A stretch of DNA of 64,000 nt, taken from positions 77,528 to 141,527 of IMG/VR virus record IMGVR_UViG_3300028376_000003. One strand, given 5' to 3'. This stretch comes from a virus. The position numbers and the translations under genes are program-made. This document shows, piece after piece, positions 1,265 to 57,385 of the stretch (positions are counted from its first letter, which is position 1; the number at the start of each line of letters is the position of its first letter). Below the pieces are notes generated by a model. The model had not been told where the DNA came from, did no database searches, and saw only the letters and a list, made by a program, of their open reading frames with translations.

Positions 1265-4200
1265 TTATGTTATATTTGAATTTATTGGTCTTGATGATTT
1301 CTTAAATATAAGTTTGTTTCTGTTCATATTAAATTTAAGAGTAAATGCAAAAGGTCTATTTTCTGATTCGTTTTCAAATAAAAATTTTACCTTTTTAATA
1401 TGGCTTACTGTATTCTTTGATTTAGTTAAATCAATATATTCAAAGTTCACACCTGATTGGTTGCTATCTAAAGCATTCATCTTGAAATAAATGTTTAATG
1501 GTATAATAATATCATTTTCACCACCTGGTTTTATATTTTTAATCTTCTCAGAATTGTTTTCTTGTATAGATTCTAAATCTTTTATAACAGGATGTATAGA
1601 TGTTAATAGCTTATTAGTCGAGTCTACTGATGTTGTTGTATCAATCCACTTATTTTGCTCCATCAAGGAGTTGTTATTACCATTGAATGATAATATGCTA
1701 TTACCAGAATAACCTAAATTATATTCAGGTGATGATAATACATTAGTCAAAGAATTTGAATTTGATATCCTAAAATCATTACCAACATTTTCTGATAATT
1801 TAGAATTTGTATTATCTGTTATAGAATCATAATTAACACACCATATAAACTGATTATTTAATTGGCTTCTGCTCACACCAGTATTATCATTTTTTAACAA
1901 TTCATCTTGCTCATTTACGAAAAATACTTGAGGTGAGTTATTCCTATAAACATTGGAATTGCTAATATAACTTTTATCTGACAATAAGCCTAGTGGGGAA
2001 TCAACAGCCTTGTTTCTTATTCTGACTACGAAATCTTTTATAACATATATGTTATTTTCGTAAACTCTACCACTAGATATATTTGTACCACTAAAAGGTT
2101 CTAGATAATCTTCACAGTCTATATTGAATGATGTTTCGCTACCATTTGAAACTACAAATTCTTGATTATTTCTTAGTATAACAGCTTCCAACACACCCCT
2201 TGACCTAGATATTCTCTCTTCTAAGCCTTTAATCTTATCTTCTAACGCTTTCAAATATTGAAATAAATCTAACGCAACTCCATTATCATCTTTAAATCCC
2301 GACAATATCTTATTTGAATCATGGTGATATGTGTTAGAATTAAGAGATACTTGTGTTGATAAGTGATCATCTAAGCCTCTTGACTCTAGAGTGCTGTCCA
2401 TTTCTTGTAAAACATCTTCCTTTAAAGCATCTTTAGATATGTTTTCTCTCTCATTTAACTCATTATTTACTTCACTAGGAAATTCAAATGAAATAATCTC
2501 AGACCATTCAGATTCTATTGGAGATTCTGGGTATCCAACTTCTGATATTGATTTTATTCTAAACTCAACTCTTTCATTGTTTTGTATAGGTATATCTAGA
2601 CTATTTATATTTGGTACATCAGGATTAGACAAATCTTCATCTTTCCATAAATATTGACCAGTTTGTGTATCAAAAATTCTTTCCCTTATATCCGTTTTTG
2701 TAGTTTTCCAATTTGAAAAACTAGCTTTTGTACCTTCTATTTTATACTGTTCTATTGGGGTCTCCTCTCCATCAACACTAACATACCTATACTGTATTCT
2801 AAACTGTATAACTTCCTGTGGGAGTGTTCCACGCTTAGATATAGCAGTTGGGAATTCCCAGAATCCTCTTAGTCTATATTTGGGTTCTGATTTGGTATCC
2901 ACACTTCTAGAAATATCAATTATCTCTTTTGTGACTGTGTTTAATAACCTACTTCTAGTTTCTTTCTTAGATGTGAGGTCTTTTAATTCTAAACTAGCTT
3001 GTTTCTTTTCTGATTCAGATTTGAATCTAGTTATTTTTATCTTTTTGTTTCTATCAGAAATAGCTTTCTCTATTTGTCTGACTTCTGATTTAAGGCTAGA
3101 TTGATAGTTACTCTTTTGTTTCAATTCAGAGTTATTAGACGTATTTGTCAAGTGCTTATTCACCTGAGCAACTTTAAAATTGTTTATATCTAATATAGGA
3201 GCAACTGGTGTAGCACCTAATTTATTTGGTATTTTCTTAGAAACTAAATCCTGTAAAACCACACCATAGTCATTAACATATTCTGTATAAAATTGCTCCA
3301 TTGTCAAACCATCAGTATCATCATCTGATGACATTCTTAAATCATTAGTAAAAAACCCAGTCCCTTTGCTCCATTTTTTAGCAACTAGATTATTATCAGT
3401 ATTTATTGGTTTTAGAAAAATAACATTCCTTTCATTATATCCTATGCTTACTCTTACAGATTTGTTATATACAACTGGTGAATATATTTTAAGTGTTCCT
3501 TTGCCAATTGCAATAGGTTCTATACCCTCAACTCTTTCGAATCTAACACGTGGATTAGAATCACTCTTTGATATTTCTAAAACTCGATATCTAGTGGATG
3601 ATTTAGTAGTATTTATAATGACATCATCATCTATAGATAGTTCAAGAACTTCATCATTATTACTCATATCTATGTAGTTTAGTGTGTTAAGTACATACCA
3701 AAGCTTTCTATTAAGCCTATCTTCATCAGTTTTAAGTACAGTAAACTCACCATCAAAGCGTATAGTATTAGGCTCTAGTTCAAATTTTTCTTCATCAAAT
3801 CTAACATTTCTTGGATTAGATACACCTGGTGTGGTTTCTGTCCATTTATTAAACTCAATAATGGTTATATCAGTCTGTCCCCTAAATGTTTGATTAAAGC
3901 TATTTAAAGCAGACTGTCCTTTTGGTGTTAGGACATCGTCATTAGTTCTTTCAAACTCTATAATATACCTTCTGACTAAGCATTTACTAACATTGTTATC
4001 TATTTTAGAAGATAGATCAAATTCCACTTGTAACATAGGATCTATCATTGAATCAAAGAACCAATTAGCCTTTGTCTTGAAATCAATAACCACACCCAAA
4101 TCAGATACTGGTATTGGATCTCTGTTTAAATCAACTGTTATTATTTTTTTAAATTTGTTGCTACCACTTTGTTGAATCATAGATCCATTAGCATCTATGC

Positions 4201-11483: not shown

Positions 11484-11816
11484 TTATTTAGGTAATTTCA
11501 TATCACTTGTTACTTCAATCTTAAATCCAAGTCCTGTGCTTTCATCAGAACCATACTTAGTCTCAGAGTGATATCCATTATCAGAATGAAATGTTATTGG
11601 TTTAGCACCATGCATCTTTTGCTTATCCTTTTCCTCTTTTTCTTTAAGCATTTCCTCAAATGTTAGATTATCTGATTTATTTACACTATTATCTCTTATA
11701 GTATCTTGTCTATCAGAGTAACCGTACTTTCTTAGTAGTTCCTCTGCCTCTTGTCCAGTTACTTCCCTTTCACTTTCAACTCTTTGTCCTTCTATTTGTC
11801 TTGTAGTAGCTCTCAT
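11484..11816 (-). CDS. Hypothetical protein (putative late gene)
   Basis: TTAATATATA immediately upstream. Confidence 0.6.
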   Translation of the reverse strand: MRATTRQIEGQRVESEREVTGQEAEELLRKYGYSDRQDTIRDNSVNKSDNLTFEEMLKEKEEKDKQKMHGAKPITFHSDNGYHSETKYGSDESTGLGFKIEVTSDMKLPK

Positions 11817-11951: not shown

Positions 11952-12024
11952 CGCGGGGTAGAGCAGTAGGTAGCTCGCTAGGCTCATAACCTAGAGGTCG
12001 TTGGTTCGAGTCCAACTCCCGCTA
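11952..12024 (+). tRNA. tRNA-Met(CAT), initiator-like
   Basis: CGCGGGG start with unpaired 1:72; anticodon arm ctagg-CTCATAA-cctag; GGTTCGAGTCC. Confidence 0.9.
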
Positions 12025-29889: not shown

Positions 29890-30342
29890 ATGGATCGTAT
29901 ATATAAAATTAAGTTTGATGTTACTGATGAAGAGTTAGATGACCTATTTATGTATTTCTCTGATGAAGACCTAGATGATGTTGAAGAGTTAGAGGCTGAG
30001 GCATATTTCTATTTTCACGAAGAAGGTAACTATGTATGTTATTTAATAACTACTGAGGTAGAGATGAGAACTTACGTGGGTGTTATGGATAAAAACAAAA
30101 TAAATATATATGTTAAAGATTTTTCCGATAGAATATTAAATTCAACTGTTAATCTAGAAGATAACTTAAGACATAACATCGATAAGGAAAATTGTGAAGA
30201 CTTTGAAGACTTCATTATTTGCCTAAATGAATGGGTTCTTGGAAAATTAGATATAGACTTTGTATTAGATAGGATATCTAGCGTAGGAATTGATAATCTA
30301 ACAGAAAATGAAAAATACTTTTTAAACTCATATAAAATATGA
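29890..30342 (+). CDS. Hypothetical acidic protein
   Basis: C-terminal DFVLDRISSVGIDNLTENEKYFL motif. Confidence 0.55.
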   Translation: MDRIYKIKFDVTDEELDDLFMYFSDEDLDDVEELEAEAYFYFHEEGNYVCYLITTEVEMRTYVGVMDKNKINIYVKDFSDRILNSTVNLEDNLRHNIDKENCEDFEDFIICLNEWVLGKLDIDFVLDRISSVGIDNLTENEKYFLNSYKI

Positions 30343-30719
30343 ATATATTCTTAGATGATATAAGAGAACCAAATATGTCACATAATAAAACTAAAGGATT
30401 AGGTAATGAATATTCTGATTCTAATAAATGGATTATAATAAGAGATTATTTTTCTTTCATTAAATTCTTAGATGATAATATAGAAAATATAACACTTATA
30501 TCATTTGATCACGACATAGCTTCATATAAAGATAGTAAAGAATACACTGGTAAAGATGCTGCCAATTATTTAATAGAGATATGTTTAGATAATAGTTTAA
30601 AAATGCCTAAATGGTATGTACATTCTGACAACACAGTTGGTGCTCATAATATAAATAGCATACTACATAACTATGTTAGGGTTGTTGAGCAGTTTAAAGG
30701 TCCAAATCACCACCTCTAG
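30339..30719 (+). CDS. Cyclic-phosphate-processing receiver-like domain protein
   Basis: IFLDDIREP, ISFDHD, HSDN.VG motifs. Confidence 0.7.
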   Translation: MNIFLDDIREPNMSHNKTKGLGNEYSDSNKWIIIRDYFSFIKFLDDNIENITLISFDHDIASYKDSKEYTGKDAANYLIEICLDNSLKMPKWYVHSDNTVGAHNINSILHNYVRVVEQFKGPNHHL

Positions 30720-52494: not shown

Positions 52495-54234
52495 TTATCT
52501 ATATATTTTTTCAAACTTTATCTGTCCACAATCAAATATTTTATAAGAACCAAGGTTATCTTCCATTATTTTGGATTCTGATAAATTTTTATCATAACCC
52601 ATCTTAATAAGCTTTTTCTTAGTCCACTTTTGTTTATTTGATCTATTTTTATTAACTATATATGAATAATTGGGATATGTGATATTTTTAATATAAAATC
52701 CTAGATTAGTATACAAATTACCAGTTGACCATGATTTATCTGCAAATGATATGACACGAGTTGGTTTATATGTTTTATTAAAATATGATATTAATTTACT
52801 AGCACCTCCTATAACACTAGTATTTATTTTATTACAAAACCTTGACAAATTCCATTCAGAGTCTAACATCTTCTTACGTCCTTCAAAATGGTCAAATGTC
52901 ATCAAGGACACCAATTCATCATTGTAATATAGTCCTATTTTTAAAGATGCAGATACATATCCCTGTATATGGTTATTATTTAAGAAGTTTCTATATTCAC
53001 TAACATCATCTATTTCTTTTATAACACATTTTCTACCATATATTTTATTATCCGTTAATCCAATCCAATTTTTTATCTGACTTTCTAAGATATCCCTTCT
53101 ATCTGACCAATCATCTTCCCAAATATGTATAATTCTTATATCCCTTTTGTTAAAATGCTTGGTTTTGTCTAGGTGATAGTTTTTATCTTTGAATAATTCA
53201 CTATGCCAGTATAATCCATTAAACTCAAATCCAATTTTTAATTCAGGTAAATATATGTCTATTTCTAGACCATCTCTATAGGATTGTATAATTTGTCCAT
53301 TATATATGCTCTTTATAAAGTTATACAATTCTAATTCCTTAAACGAAGTACTCATAACTGGGAAACATGTAGTGCATTGCTTATTATTTAGTCTATTCCT
53401 AAAATGGTATAAACTAGAATTGGTAATAAATGTGTGGTTTTCTTTGTTATCACAATACATCTCATGTTTTCCCAAACCTAAGTAATTCATATAATTCGTA
53501 CTAGTATTTAAGTTAGTTCTAATATCACAACCTCTATATTTCTCAAACATTAATTCTTTATACATTTTAGTTTTTGTATAATTATTAACACCCCATCTAT
53601 TTATATTGTCTTTTTTAAGTTTATCAATCACTTTTCCCAACTTCATATGATGTGTGACACCATATTTTACCATATTTTGCTTCTTTATTATATTTTTAAT
53701 TTCCTCTGACTCAAAAGGATTATCAACACCAAAGTTATGTTTAGTTGTTATTTTTTTCTTTGCCTTTATTTCATCTATTTGTGATACGTTATCAACTCCA
53801 TATCTTTCATTATTTGTCTTTTTCACTTTTTCATTCACTTTATCGTAATCTATCATAGATTTACTTTTTTTGATTTTATCTCTGACCACTTCACTTTTAG
53901 ATGGATTATCAACACCCCATTTATCTATGCTATTTTTTTTAAAAGATAATATTTTAGTACTAATTAAGGCTAAATTATTATTAGAACATTTATAAGAACA
54001 AAATTCCCTATATCCCCTTTTTATTGATAAAAATTTTACATTACCATCACATGATTTACACTTAGCTTTTTCATTTTCTATTAAGTATACCTTTTCTGTA
54101 AATGATATTCCAATTAAATTATTTGTAAATTCATAAAAATTGGGCAAATTCTTTTTAACCCAAGACTCTTTTACTGAGTGTTGACTTACCTTTTCTATAA
54201 ATGTATTATATTCTTCTCTTGTTTTATTATCCAT
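52495..54234 (-). CDS. Homing-endonuclease-like protein with (Y/W)GVDN repeats
   Basis: Repeated WGVDNP/YGVDNV; EIDIYLPELKIGFEFNGLYWH nuclease motif; conserved C-terminal domain. Confidence 0.75.
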   Translation of the reverse strand: MDNKTREEYNTFIEKVSQHSVKESWVKKNLPNFYEFTNNLIGISFTEKVYLIENEKAKCKSCDGNVKFLSIKRGYREFCSYKCSNNNLALISTKILSFKKNSIDKWGVDNPSKSEVVRDKIKKSKSMIDYDKVNEKVKKTNNERYGVDNVSQIDEIKAKKKITTKHNFGVDNPFESEEIKNIIKKQNMVKYGVTHHMKLGKVIDKLKKDNINRWGVNNYTKTKMYKELMFEKYRGCDIRTNLNTSTNYMNYLGLGKHEMYCDNKENHTFITNSSLYHFRNRLNNKQCTTCFPVMSTSFKELELYNFIKSIYNGQIIQSYRDGLEIDIYLPELKIGFEFNGLYWHSELFKDKNYHLDKTKHFNKRDIRIIHIWEDDWSDRRDILESQIKNWIGLTDNKIYGRKCVIKEIDDVSEYRNFLNNNHIQGYVSASLKIGLYYNDELVSLMTFDHFEGRKKMLDSEWNLSRFCNKINTSVIGGASKLISYFNKTYKPTRVISFADKSWSTGNLYTNLGFYIKNITYPNYSYIVNKNRSNKQKWTKKKLIKMGYDKNLSESKIMEDNLGSYKIFDCGQIKFEKIYR

Positions 54235-54357
54235 TTTCTATATATAATCTAAACCATCGCTCCTTGCAAAAAACACTAAAAATATATTTTTTATAATGAT
54301 TATGTTGTCAATATATAATTATTTAGTATATTTGTTTTAAATTAATAAATAAATAAA

Positions 54358-54708
54358 ATGAAATTCATATACAATAGTGTATTTTACATTTGTAATAAGA
54401 TTGTTAGTAACATAAGACCTAATAGCTGGCAAAGTTGGGAATCAGTCAGAATGACATGCACCATTCCAAAAAAAGTGTATTTAGATATTAAAGGAACTAG
54501 TGGCGATATTGAATTTATAATATATGATGATAATAGTCCTAAAGTGTCTTATGTATTATACAATTCTACTATAGAAAGAATGACAATTTCATCGGCTTTC
54601 AAAAACGGTGATGTTAGAGTTACATTTATATTGTCAGTTACTGATTCACAAGCTATAGAAAATAAATCATTTATAAGAAATTTAAAGTTAAAGCAAGTAT
54701 ATCTTTAA
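54358..54708 (+). CDS. Hypothetical protein
   Basis: C-terminal RNLKLKQV tag. Confidence 0.55.
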   Translation: MKFIYNSVFYICNKIVSNIRPNSWQSWESVRMTCTIPKKVYLDIKGTSGDIEFIIYDDNSPKVSYVLYNSTIERMTISSAFKNGDVRVTFILSVTDSQAIENKSFIRNLKLKQVYL

Positions 54709-54712
54709 AAAT

Positions 54713-54799
54713 AAAAGCCAGAAGTAGCGAATTTCTGGCTTTTTATAGTTGTTATAACTACACCGATCCTAAAGTAAGGGCATTCGCCCCTCGGTGTTA
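54713..54799 (-). ncRNA. Candidate structured small RNA complementary to 23S rRNA H69-H70
   Basis: GC-rich intergenic island with ACACCGA/TCGGTGT stem, terminal hairpin AAAAGCCAGAA/TTCTGGCTTTT and late motif upstream. Confidence 0.55.
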
Positions 54800-54892
54800 A
54801 AAGTATATATTATTATTCAAAGCCTCCTTTTATTAAACTTTTTAGAACATTGAGCATAAAACAATAAATAATAAATAATAAAAATCATTAAA

Positions 54893-55201
54893 ATGACAAA
54901 ACACGAAGTAAAAGTAGAAATCACAGAGAAAGACTCTATCTTGAGTATGATTAACAAAGCCTATCCCAAAAGTATGAAGGGTAGGATAAATGGTAATGAG
55001 AACTTTATGGAAATATATAGCACTAGTGATAGTTTTTCTGTATTCAAAGGTCTTAATGGCTCAACTGCTAAGATAAGTAATCAAGAGATTATAGATGGAA
55101 CTATTAGAGTTATGGTAAAGGAAGAGAAAGGAATTGTCAAACTATACCCCATTTCTATTTATTGTATAGATGATGAACAAGGTAGATATATCTTTTACTA
55201 A
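54893..55201 (+). CDS. Hypothetical protein
   Basis: AACTT-N15-CATAA upstream. Confidence 0.55.
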   Translation: MTKHEVKVEITEKDSILSMINKAYPKSMKGRINGNENFMEIYSTSDSFSVFKGLNGSTAKISNQEIIDGTIRVMVKEEKGIVKLYPISIYCIDDEQGRYIFY

Positions 55202-55202
55202 T

Positions 55203-56231
55203 ATGAGAGATATAAAACTAGATTGGAATGACATATCATTAGTACCACAGGCTATAAGTAGCATATCTTCAAGAAATGAAGTCACTATAACAGACTTATG
55301 TAATATGCTTCCTCTATTTACTGCACCAATGGATACAGTTATTGATGGGAATAATTCTAAAACATTTCACGATAAGGATATAAACGTTTGTCTACCTAGA
55401 AATGTTAAGTTCAAGAAAGGCAGTGAACAGAAGTATTTCTATTCATATGGACTTGATGATATTATAGAGAAAGTAAATAATGATTTGTTATTACCAAATA
55501 GGATACTAATAGATGTTGCTAATGGTCATATGGAAAAACTTATAAATATATCAAAAAAGATAAAAGATAAGTATGGCAATGATAAGGAACTTATGGTTGG
55601 TAATATAGCCAACCCAGAAACATATAAAACTTATTGTGCTATTGGTGTTGATTATATAAGAGTTGGTATAGGTGGTGGAAGTTCTTGTACAACATCTGCC
55701 AATGTATCTATCCATTACCCAATGGCATCGCTTATATCAGAGTGTTATGATATAGGATTGTTGTATGCTAAGCCAACAAAAATAATAGCAGACGGTGGCT
55801 TTAGAAGCTTTTCAGATGTTATAAAAGCCATTGCAGTTGGTGCTGATTATGTTATGCTTGGTGGTATTTTTAATAAATGTATGGAAAGTTGTAGCACTAG
55901 TTATACTAAGCTTAGTGATAATACTTATGTAGAAAAGGATTATATGACTGCTAGGACATTATTTGAAAGTGGTGATAATGTATATAAATACTATAGAGGT
56001 ATGTCAACAAAAGAAGTACAGAAAGCCTGGAATAAAAAAGATTTAAAAACAGGTGAAGGTATAACCAAATATAACTTGGTCGAATATACTTTGGACGGAT
56101 GGGTAGAAAACTTTAGCGATTATTTAAAATCCGCTATGTCATATACTGGATGTAGAACACTAGAAGATTTTATAGGCGGACCAGAGATTATTCAAATATC
56201 ACAAATGTCTTTTAATAGATTCCATAAATAA
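55203..56231 (+). CDS. GMP reductase / IMPDH-family enzyme
   Basis: APMDTV, IDVANGH, VGIGGGSSCTT, IIADGG, YRGMST, SAMSYTG. Confidence 0.88.
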   Translation: MRDIKLDWNDISLVPQAISSISSRNEVTITDLCNMLPLFTAPMDTVIDGNNSKTFHDKDINVCLPRNVKFKKGSEQKYFYSYGLDDIIEKVNNDLLLPNRILIDVANGHMEKLINISKKIKDKYGNDKELMVGNIANPETYKTYCAIGVDYIRVGIGGGSSCTTSANVSIHYPMASLISECYDIGLLYAKPTKIIADGGFRSFSDVIKAIAVGADYVMLGGIFNKCMESCSTSYTKLSDNTYVEKDYMTARTLFESGDNVYKYYRGMSTKEVQKAWNKKDLKTGEGITKYNLVEYTLDGWVENFSDYLKSAMSYTGCRTLEDFIGGPEIIQISQMSFNRFHK

Positions 56232-57385
56232 AGAGCAAGAAATCTTGTTGTCTAAACATTTTGGGTGTTCAAGATTCATATATAACCATTTTCTTAATGA
56301 GCGTAAAGAACAATATCAAAAAGATAAGAAATCAGATAACTATTATGTTCAAGCAAAATCTTTAACAGAATTAAAGAAAGATGAAGATTATAAATGGTTA
56401 AAAGAAGTTAATAGCCAGACTATACAATTTGCTTTAAGGTGTTTAGATACTTCTTATGTTAATTTTTTTCGTGGTAATGCTCAGTTTCCTAATTTTAAAT
56501 CAAGAAAAAACAAAAACACATTCACTATTCCTCAGTTTGGTAGATTAGAAGAAAATAAAATAATTATACCTAAATTTAAAGGTGGTATTAAAGTTAAATT
56601 AGATAGGAGAAAAATTAAAGGCAAAATTGGTAAAATGAGCATTACTAAAACACCAACAGGTAAATATTATGTTTCTATTTTCACCGAACAAGAAATCGAA
56701 CAATTACCTAAAACTGGTAAAAAAGTGGGTATTGATTTAGGTATCAAAGATTTTGTGATTACCTCAGATAATAAAAAATATAAAAATAATAAATATACTA
56801 AAAAGTATGCTAGAGAATTAAAGAAAGTACAACAGCATTTATCTCGTAAACAAAAAGGTAGTAATGGGTTTGAAAAACAAAGACTCAAAGTTGCTAAAAT
56901 TCACGAAAAGATAGCAAGTTGTAGATTGGATACCTTACACAAAGTTAGTAGAGAACTTGTCGAATCTTATGATTTAATAAGTGTTGAAGATTTGAATGTA
57001 AAGGGTATGATTAAAAATCATAAGTTATCTAAACATATTGCTGATGTAAGTTGGGGTAATTTTGTTACATTACTTCAATATAAGTGTAATTGGTATGGAA
57101 AAGAACTTGTTAAAATAGGTAGATTTTTTCCATCATCAAAAACTTGTAATAGTTGTGGTTGGATAAATCAAGGATTAAAACTTTCAGACAGAGAATGGAC
57201 TTGCTCACCTTGTGGTGAAACTCATGATAGGGACATAAATGCAAGTAAAAACATTCTAAAAGAAGGTTTAAAAATATTTGGGCAGGGACTGTCCAATACA
57301 AAGGTGGAGAGTAAATCAGACTTCTGTGAAGAAGCACACTCTGTGAAACCCGAAACACATTAGTCTTTAGCTAATGGGTAGTTCA
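56227..57385 (+). mobile_element. tnpB: IS200/IS605-family element: tnpB plus right end, left end deleted
   Basis: GIDLG, VEDL, DRDINA RuvC motifs; CxxC zinc finger; right-end hairpin ending GGGTAGTTCA. Confidence 0.9.

Follow-up and report, generated by a model that had tools for sequence, protein, structure and literature searches.

It is known that CopA/CopT of plasmid R1, RNA I/RNA II of ColE1, and Sok/hok each rely on a small untranslated RNA with its own promoter and an intrinsic terminator. The complementary bases of these RNAs are placed in loops with a YUNR turn, a feature of fast-pairing antisense loops, and the stems are free to vary. Other small RNAs meet the ribosome or the rRNA itself. 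Ribosome-associated noncoding RNAs and tRNA fragments bind ribosomes, as in the case of a Val-tRNA fragment of Haloferax on the small subunit. The box C/D and H/ACA guides of archaea and eukaryotes are short RNAs that complement conserved rRNA over 10-20 nt; the helix 69 (H69) region of 23S rRNA is among their targets. H69 makes the intersubunit bridge B2a and contacts the A-site tRNA. The Y RNA-like and tRNA-like RNAs of the rsr-yrlBA-rtcBA loci are noncoding RNAs encoded near RNA-repair-type genes. Phages also intervene in translation; they supply tRNAs, translation factors, and ribosomal proteins of their own.

Here, I describe a putative small RNA of an uncultured phage that combines several of these traits. 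The reading that I favour is that it is a loop-presenting antisense RNA which would pair with the host 23S rRNA; I assign it a probability of roughly 0.45. Comparison among distant phages supports the view that complementarity to 23S residues 1911-1938 (E. coli numbering) is the conserved feature of the RNA.

The element and its surroundings

The window, i.e., the whole stretch of DNA analysed here, is the final 64 kb of a 141.5-kb virus record with a G+C content of 28.7% and 20 tRNA genes; the completeness of the record is about 20% according to CheckV. The phage nrdB is 73-78% identical to nrdB of Flavobacterium and other Flavobacteriaceae, and these nrdB relatives were used as the route to a host-like rRNA. 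The TnpB gene was also tried as a host marker, and no relative of it was found among the genome contigs. Near-identical DNA is present in 23 sequencing runs, all of which are DNA runs of lakes or salt lakes. The element lies in a spacer between two plus-strand ORFs, and the second ORF is followed by a GMP-reductase-like gene and then by the TnpB gene. The features are as follows.

54358-54708, plus strand: upstream ORF, 116 amino acids, without a Pfam match
54709-54892: spacer with the element, 184 nt, between two plus-strand ORFs
54707-54799, minus strand: predicted extent of the small RNA, about 90 nt, with the start placed by the promoter motif and the end by the U-run past hairpin 1
54713-54743, both strands: hairpin 1, bidirectional intrinsic terminator, stem GCCAGAA/TTCTGGC between an A-run and a T-run
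54744-54759, minus strand: linker between the hairpins, variable in length and sequence across the family
54755-54776, minus strand: 23S-like 22-mer whose RNA strand is complementary to 23S rRNA (E. coli about 1911-1932)
54760-54797, minus strand: hairpin 2, bulged, with outer stem ACACCGA/TCGGTGT, inner stem GGGC/GCCC, and an 11-nt internal loop
54804-54812, minus strand: promoter-like motif TAATATATA, directed toward the hairpins
54893-55201, plus strand: downstream ORF, 102 amino acids, without a Pfam match

Hairpin 1 starts 5 nt past the stop codon of the upstream ORF and thus doubles as the plus-strand terminator of this ORF. It has 13 pairs in a terminator scan and a T-run on the plus strand, as expected for an intrinsic terminator, and its stem is followed by UUUUAUUUUU on the minus strand. 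The 9-nt loop (54724-54732) reads GTAGCGAAT on the plus strand and AUUCGCUAC on the RNA strand, the latter being complementary to 23S GUAGCGAA(A)U. An earlier note on this DNA, made from the letters alone, had placed a second 23S-like block within a hairpin loop. This was correct, since GTAGCGAA occupies positions 54724-54731 of the loop.

Hairpin 2 has the internal loop UUACUUUAGGA on the RNA strand, the complement of 23S UCCUAAGGUA. The 22-mer lies partly inside this internal loop, and its complement in 23S rRNA comprises the H69 loop, the 3′ strand of the H69 stem, and the junction. The 3′ part of the linker is TAACT on the plus strand, which extends the likeness to the H69 loop. Both RNA loops start with YUNR-type turns (UUUA and UUCG), as far as these can be read from the letters. 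The bulged hairpin at 54760-54797 and the service of hairpin 1 as the terminator of the upstream ORF are the two features added to the account given in the earlier note.

The predicted RNA stretch has no ORF longer than 4 codons. A minus-oriented promoter motif, the lack of such an ORF, and a minus-strand terminator together give the locus the make-up of a small RNA gene at the sequence level. The comparison of loci described below supports the view that the element is a discrete minus-strand unit of about 90 nt, consisting of the promoter-like motif, the bulged hairpin, and the terminator hairpin.

The spacer is 100% identical in five IMG/VR contigs of the same phage population, which carry no covariation information. 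The element is invariant in five related contigs and in four further lake DNA runs, while polymorphism is seen in the ORF next to it. Relatives of the 102-aa ORF at 50% identity (loci L011-L013) have no element immediately upstream; one of these contigs has the element about 700 nt farther upstream, ahead of a gene for a cRec domain protein.

The promoter-like motif

It was assessed how TAATATATA is distributed in the genome. The motif is the most intergenic-enriched 9-mer of its composition, with 42 of 48 copies in intergenic regions, as compared with a median of 5 of 21 for 9-mers of like composition. Thirty-two copies lie at most 60 nt upstream of a start codon on the same strand, and one copy lies 17 nt before the tRNA-Met gene at 11952. 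Of the copies in tandem spacers, 17 have the direction of the genes and 3 are anti-oriented, one of which in fact serves a tRNA block. The copy at 54804-54812 belongs to these three; it aims at hairpin 2 and the terminator, and no ORF lies beyond them on the minus strand. A position weight matrix (PWM) trained on unambiguous promoters, which themselves score from 7.4 to 18.3 bits, gives this copy 8.8 bits on the minus strand and 1.1 bits on the plus strand. The claim that a late-type motif at 54804-54812 and a terminator-like hairpin frame a predicted minus-strand transcript is thus borne out, at the level of sequence, by the PWM scores and the minus-strand terminator.

Is the element simply a local antisense regulator? 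An RNA of the window type fully complements the plus-strand spacer, and it shares the terminator hairpin with the upstream ORF. Moreover, no co-oriented promoter motif is found within 60 nt of ORF 54893. The minus-strand RNA might therefore act solely on the plus transcript of its own spacer, for example by changing how often transcription reads through the terminator into ORF 54893-55201 and the GMP-reductase-like gene, or by altering the stability of the upstream mRNA. Such a role would leave unexplained why only the rRNA-complementary loops are conserved and why the RNA is co-oriented with its neighbours in other subfamilies (see below), and I consider it very unlikely.

Match to 23S rRNA and the level of chance

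The match of 18 of 22 positions between 54755-54776 and the H69 region, on which the earlier note was built, was reproduced with TAACTATAACGGTCCTAAGGTA of a Flavobacterium 23S rRNA (locus L095). The note had counted five differences, four of which would become G-U pairs in an antisense RNA. In fact, there are four differences, three of them transitions that would give G-U pairs and the fourth a G.A mismatch.

In this genome alone, the complementarity (23S rRNA against 141 kb) is no better than chance. The phage genome has 30 segments with at least 18/22 identity to some part of the whole 23S rRNA. When G-U pairs are allowed, 43 segments reach 21/22, as against 22-29 in shuffled genomes. The weighted duplex score at the site is 43, and the maxima of shuffled genomes are 44-52. 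The duplex of the full-length RNA with 23S rRNA has an energy of -54.8 kcal/mol, which equals the expectation from the G+C content; this energy was dropped as evidence.

The 28-nt segment that includes the internal loop, the 3′ stem strand, and the linker (the reverse complement of 54752-54779) pairs with 23S rRNA at -29.0 kcal/mol, and 0 of 300 shuffles were as strong. The best place for this segment in the whole 23S rRNA is the H69 site. The loop of hairpin 1 alone pairs weakly (-13.4 kcal/mol, matched by 30 of 300 shuffles), and GTAGCGAA is present at two further places in rRNA, three in total. For an exact 11-mer match to 16S and 23S rRNA, about 0.002 occurrences are expected per block. 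The evidence beyond chance is comparative: the two 23S-like blocks are the sole invariant parts of the family in distant phages.

Homologous loci in other phages

The protein of ORF 54358-54708 has one distant relative, with 30% identity, in the uncultured 635-kb phage LR745206. In the spacer downstream of that ORF, a hairpin presents the identical loop, GTAGCGAAT, on another stem. The hairpin is followed by AAACTACACCGGTCCTAAAG and then by TTAATATATAAG on the minus strand, which scores 15.1 bits as compared with 5.8 bits on the plus strand. This homolog was found through the flanking protein, and neither block was used in finding it.

Viral and metagenome contigs were then scanned with a pattern of the two blocks. 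The window type comprises six distinct sequences, namely, those of the window and loci L101, L105, L114, L112, and L103. Two intermediates, L102 and L104, have features of both the window type and a T4-like subfamily. The aligned RNA strands share a mean identity of 56%, and no blocks other than C.TTAGGA.CGGTGT and ATTCGCTAC are invariant. The former is unchanged in the six members, and the inner hairpin of hairpin 2 shifts in both sequence and position. The loop of hairpin 1 is identical in 8/8 members. Among the stems that carry it in these eight members, six differ in sequence and are perfectly paired or have one U-G pair; the stem of L103 has no more than 3 bp, and the stem of L102 recurs in L104. 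Locus L112 carries CGGTCCTAAGGTAG, i.e., 14 contiguous 23S bases, in its loop 2, and GGTAGCGAA, which overlaps and extends the 23S stretch of loop 2, in its loop 1.

Since the scan required both blocks, their invariance is partly built in for the members found by pattern; LR745206 and a scan with block B alone are the unbiased cases. Loci L108, L111/L116, and about 15 of the 48 block-B loci look like chance or coding matches and were omitted. For LR756502 and LR756504, one match with 1 mismatch falls in coding-looking sequence and was likewise not counted as an element.

In this family, the bases complementary to the proposed target are found in unpaired loops and are kept even as the stems change. 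The earlier note had held that homologs keeping the hairpins and losing the rRNA complementarity would speak against its proposal, and the opposite pattern was observed across phages; the stems change, and the rRNA-complementary loops stay. The same pattern bears on whether the locus is merely a terminator, a stray hairpin, and a promoter that happen to resemble rRNA. The chance-level statistics within the genome and the fact that hairpin 1 is an ordinary terminator of the upstream ORF would suit such a coincidence. Both blocks are kept in LR745206, which was found without them, and in phages with unrelated flanking genes, and coincidence is therefore an extremely unlikely explanation.

The T4-like subfamily

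The scan with block B alone gave 48 loci, and 27 of them, of which 17 are distinct, form the T4-like subfamily. Their neighbours encode a family B DNA polymerase, a DsbA-like regulator, a Dps/ferritin-like protein, and a radical SAM protein. The T4-like loci have in common with the window type a hairpin of the form ACACC / GGTCCTAAGG / GGTGT, and they retain the loop CGGTCCTAAGG. In the window, the corresponding hairpin is ACACCGA...TCGGTGT, which conforms to the ACACC / loop / GGUGU form (the complement of 23S GGUCCUAAGG), and its internal loop carries TCCTAAAG with two G-to-A changes.

The T4-like loci have an extra hairpin, in which the loop region CAGCAGCCGCG is identical to 16S residues 519-529 at 11 of 11 positions. 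The stem of this hairpin covaries (GCGC/GCGC, GGGC/GCCC, CCGC/GCGG, and ACGC/GCGT). The GCTCAC tail, the CACGAC hairpin, and the 16S-like AGCAGCC hairpin are all absent from the element of the window. In comparison with the T4-like form, the window form has instead a terminator hairpin, the loop of which is complementary to the next 23S segment; it also has its own promoter motif and lies inverted relative to the neighbouring genes. By its features, the window element is a separate subtype that is tied to the T4-like subfamily through L102 and L104.

The 16S-like loop and the GCTCAC tail co-occur in the T4-like form, and both are missing from the window type. This suggests that the identity to 16S rRNA may be partly incidental. 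It also suits the idea that the RNA family is real and has another partner, such as a phage or host protein or RNA, the rRNA identity being incidental. The loop (GCUGCU) and the tail (AGUGAGC) of the T4-like RNA could form an intramolecular pseudoknot or a kissing contact, and pseudoknot partners would be expected to be present and absent together. Furthermore, GTAGCGAA is short and occurs three times in rRNA, and the permuted order of the two blocks fits contiguous pairing with 23S rRNA poorly. On the other hand, the parts of 23S rRNA that the two loops match adjoin and overlap within one stretch. The matches extend to 14 contiguous bases in L112 and to 18/22 in the window, including bases of the H69 loop outside the core. 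Since the loops are invariant in phages of varied G+C and gene content, any other partner would have to be equally invariant. Taken together, I regard another partner as unlikely.

Which strand is functional?

In the window, the functional strand is probably the minus strand, which is complementary to rRNA. Loci L101, L105, and L114 have the same promoter motif on the same strand and in the same place as the window. The motif favours the antisense strand in the window, L101, and L114, and the PWM scores are alike on both strands in L105 (scored on its duplicate L106). In L112 and L103, GATAAATA occupies the place of the motif. The earlier note had argued from wobble pairs, and this argument held across the family; the substitutions inside CGGTCCTAAGG are all sense G to A, i.e., C to U in the RNA, and G-U pairing with 23S rRNA is kept.

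The plus strand may instead be the functional one. The RNA would then be a sense mimic of rRNA that serves as a decoy or a competitor for a factor recognising rRNA sites, such as a host-defence ribotoxin, an rRNA-modifying enzyme, or a ribosomal protein. It would display copies of 23S 1920-1938 and, in the relatives, of 16S 519-529. Phage RNA decoys are known elsewhere in the form of tRNA variants and repeat-like anti-CRISPR RNAs. On the sense strand, the loops are identical to rRNA rather than just similar. A sense-strand T-run, TCTTATTTTTT, follows the last T4-like hairpin (P3), the sense strand gives the better fold of L102 and L104 (-45.3 vs -33.6 kcal/mol), and L120, L122, and L102 have G-U pairs of the sense strand at helix ends. 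Consensus folding of the T4-like loci gives similar scores for both strands and was rejected as a strand test, since the strands are too similar to decide.

Several observations are at odds with a sense mimic. In the window, L101, L105, and L114, a sense transcript would stop at hairpin 1 and its T-run before reaching hairpin 2. Hairpin 1 has no promoter motif ahead of it, and the motifs aim in the opposite direction. The flanking genes all lie on the antisense strand in L102, L103, L112, and 15/15 T4-like loci, so that the neighbours of the GC-richer and T4-like loci speak for the strand other than the mimic's. C.A mismatches in the stem interiors of the sense strand become U-G pairs on the antisense strand in L114, L103, L124, and L149. 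Finally, G-to-A changes in the loop would alter a mimic, yet they preserve antisense pairing. A sense mimic is thus unlikely.

How the RNA might act on 23S rRNA

If the minus strand is functional, an antisense mechanism may be proposed. The RNA would start a few bases past the phage's own promoter motif, fold a bulged 5′ hairpin, and terminate in the terminator hairpin. It would expose two stretches: the internal loop of hairpin 2 with the linker, including CUUUAGGAUCGGUGUAGUUA, and the hairpin 1 loop, AUUCGCUAC. Both are complementary to one universally conserved stretch of 23S rRNA, from the H69 loop through the 3′ strand of the stem and the junction to about residue 1938.

Residues 1920-1924 of 23S rRNA form base pairs in the H69 stem, and the interface of the 70S ribosome is occupied. 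Since the target is paired or buried in the 70S ribosome, free or unfolded rRNA is the more likely partner. Pairing may thus occur where the 23S stretch is free, i.e., on free 50S subunits, nascent 23S rRNA, or broken 23S rRNA, and it would alter what the ribosome or the rRNA can do. Subunit joining might be blocked, or the site might be shielded or held. The complementary stretch is itself partly paired within hairpin 2. The two blocks are permuted relative to the order in 23S rRNA and overlap by GUA; thus, they cannot both pair contiguously with one 23S molecule.

A gene for a cRec domain protein adjoins the element in L106 and L114, which belong to a single clade, as well as in L112. Between the L112 and L106 proteins, the identity is 33%, and the L112 gene has the opposite relative orientation. 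In the window, the cRec gene is at 30339-30719, 24 kb from the element. In jumbo phages, cRec is linked to RNA ligases; it is predicted to be an enzyme that processes cyclic phosphates, and a role in RNA repair has been proposed for it (PMC7824862). The recurrent neighbour suggests a tie to RNA damage and repair at the 23S site.

A more specific possibility is that the RNA is the phage's answer to an attack on the ribosome. The two loops would grip 23S rRNA on both sides of G1930-A1932, between H69 and H70/71, and would either protect this site against a host ribonuclease or keep the cut ends in place so that the phage can repair them. In the case of repair, the cut 23S ends would be processed by the RNA-end-processing and ligase enzymes of the phage. 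This would explain the cRec neighbour in two independent lineages, the GUA overlap, and the placement of the blocks in separate hairpins instead of one antisense stretch. Even so, I consider it distinctly unlikely. If it were true, it would be the first RNA-guided system of rRNA protection or repair, and it would imply an unknown defence toxin that cuts 23S rRNA in the G1930-A1932 region.

For the favoured antisense reading in general, pairing with 23S rRNA at H69 and the junction would let phages act on the large subunit directly through an RNA. Since members occur in giant Flavobacteriia-type phages, T4-like phages, and GC-richer phages, the mechanism, if true, would be widespread. The recurrence of cRec also raises the question of whether this part of 23S rRNA is targeted when phage and host are in conflict. 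The antisense reading is readily testable, as the RNA is 90 nt, the target sequence is known, and loop mutants can be designed.

Searches for related RNAs and other identities

In a search of the window with Rfam 15, the best hits were Thr_leader with 21 bits (cut-off 55) and a snoRNA with 23 bits (cut-off 60); at the element in 12 homologous loci, nothing was above the threshold. The 1-kb region and the T4-like element had no blastn match among 50,697 phage records, and no isolate phage with the element was found there. The two-block pattern was absent from the 401 genomes of the host class that were searched. A search of the literature yielded no description of the motif or of a phage RNA complementary to H69. 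By its features, the element is a member of an undescribed RNA family that appears to belong to uncultured phages.

Other identities were also considered. A tRNA fragment and a mimic of an anticodon loop were both dropped. A mimic of the sarcin-ricin loop was rejected, since the antisense strand shares AGGACCGG.GUG with the 3′ flank of that loop but does not have the GAGA; 23S residues 1919-1926 are complementary to 23S residues 2662-2669. A boxA-like reading of GCTCACTTTAA is weak, with a 2-nt indel. The covarying stems point to RNA and not to a DNA site of a homing endonuclease. A guide RNA of TnpB or CRISPR was rejected because linkage to such genes is not seen across the family.

Comparison with known systems

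The recurrent cRec neighbour in L106, L114, and L112 recalls the Y RNA-like and tRNA-like RNAs of rsr-yrlBA-rtcBA, in which a noncoding RNA is found near a gene of the RNA-repair type. The likeness ends with this gene context; there is no sequence or structural likeness and no Rfam match, and the window cRec gene is distant from the element.

The box C/D and H/ACA guides resemble the element in being short RNAs with complementarity to conserved rRNA of a similar kind. Unlike them, the element has permuted blocks that are not in the order of an H/ACA pocket, and no partner enzyme is linked to it. The 91-nt RNA strand has neither C/D boxes (RUGAUGA and CUGA) nor an ANA/ACA box or a pseudouridylation pocket.

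As with ribosome-associated noncoding RNAs, the proposed action is directly on the ribosome and not on an mRNA. Those RNAs are cellular and are mostly processing products, and none is known to depend on long Watson-Crick complementarity to H69.

The closest likeness in design is to CopA/CopT, RNA I/RNA II, and Sok/hok. The element shares with them a small untranslated RNA, its own promoter, and an intrinsic terminator, as well as complementary bases in YUNR-turn loops on stems that are free to vary. Those RNAs target an mRNA or a primer of the same locus, whereas the computed target here is a universal rRNA in trans, and the element occurs in unrelated gene contexts. Thus, a small antisense RNA with recognition loops is a known design; what appears to be new, with no earlier description found, is a conserved family of phage RNAs putatively aimed at a universally conserved rRNA.

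Variable gene content around the predicted small RNA locus

The features considered here are as follows (window coordinates unless stated).
29890-30719: region of the cRec gene (30339-30719), encoding a predicted cyclic-phosphate-processing enzyme (PF20274, 67 bits)
52508-54286, minus strand: 579-aa ORF (DUF7487) with repeated GVDNP-type motifs
54305-54357: Bacteroidota-type promoter (TTG, 19 nt, TATATTTG), 5′ of the 116-aa ORF
56229-57363: TnpB (OrfB_IS605) gene, 3′ of the GMP-reductase-like gene
Genome position 11503 (window coordinate -66025; 66,025 bases before the window start, outside the window), plus strand: TAATATATA copy

The DUF7487 ORF looks like a free-standing homing endonuclease. 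Two related contigs (L002 and L003) share it with the window, whereas L001, L004, and L005 lack it cleanly; it is thus a mobile insertion, placed between nrdB and the 116-aa ORF. The TnpB gene is shared with L003 only, and the remaining related contigs have different sequences at that position; thus, the TnpB locus is a second presence/absence polymorphism within the same 5 kb.

The 116-aa ORF (54358-54708) has 12 variable sites among close relatives, evenly spread over the first (5), second (4), and third (3) codon positions, and individual lake samples contain two haplotypes of it side by side. Either fast evolution or weak constraint accounts for this variation. In contrast, the adjoining spacer with the small RNA element is invariant.

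Promoters

The 116-aa ORF is preceded by the Bacteroidota-type promoter. Most other genes carry the phage motif TTAATATATAA. ATATTTG is likewise enriched 5′ of genes. Thus, the phage genome seems to have two promoter classes. Among anti-oriented TAATATATA copies in spacers between co-oriented genes, the one at 11503 is the only other without an ORF within 545 nt, and it possibly marks a second orphan transcription unit.

RNA-related genes and the T4-like subfamily

The cRec gene comes just after the Asp/Gln/Pro tRNA cluster and an ORF of 150 aa, a position that would be consistent with a function in repairing tRNA or other RNA. In another phage, represented by a 328-kb IMG/VR contig (L103), a member of the small RNA family was found in one genome with a circularly permuted tmRNA (RF04321, 95.6 bits; 2858-3176).

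In the T4-like subfamily (27 loci within L119-L157; for example, L124:7171-7251), the P1 loop region GGCACGACTCC is invariant, and neither it nor the 5′ tail GCTCACTTTAA has an rRNA match. After the T4-like element, the opposite strand carries a near-consensus sigma-70 promoter (TTGCAA, 17 nt, TATAAT or TACAAT), which belongs to a DsbA-like gene.
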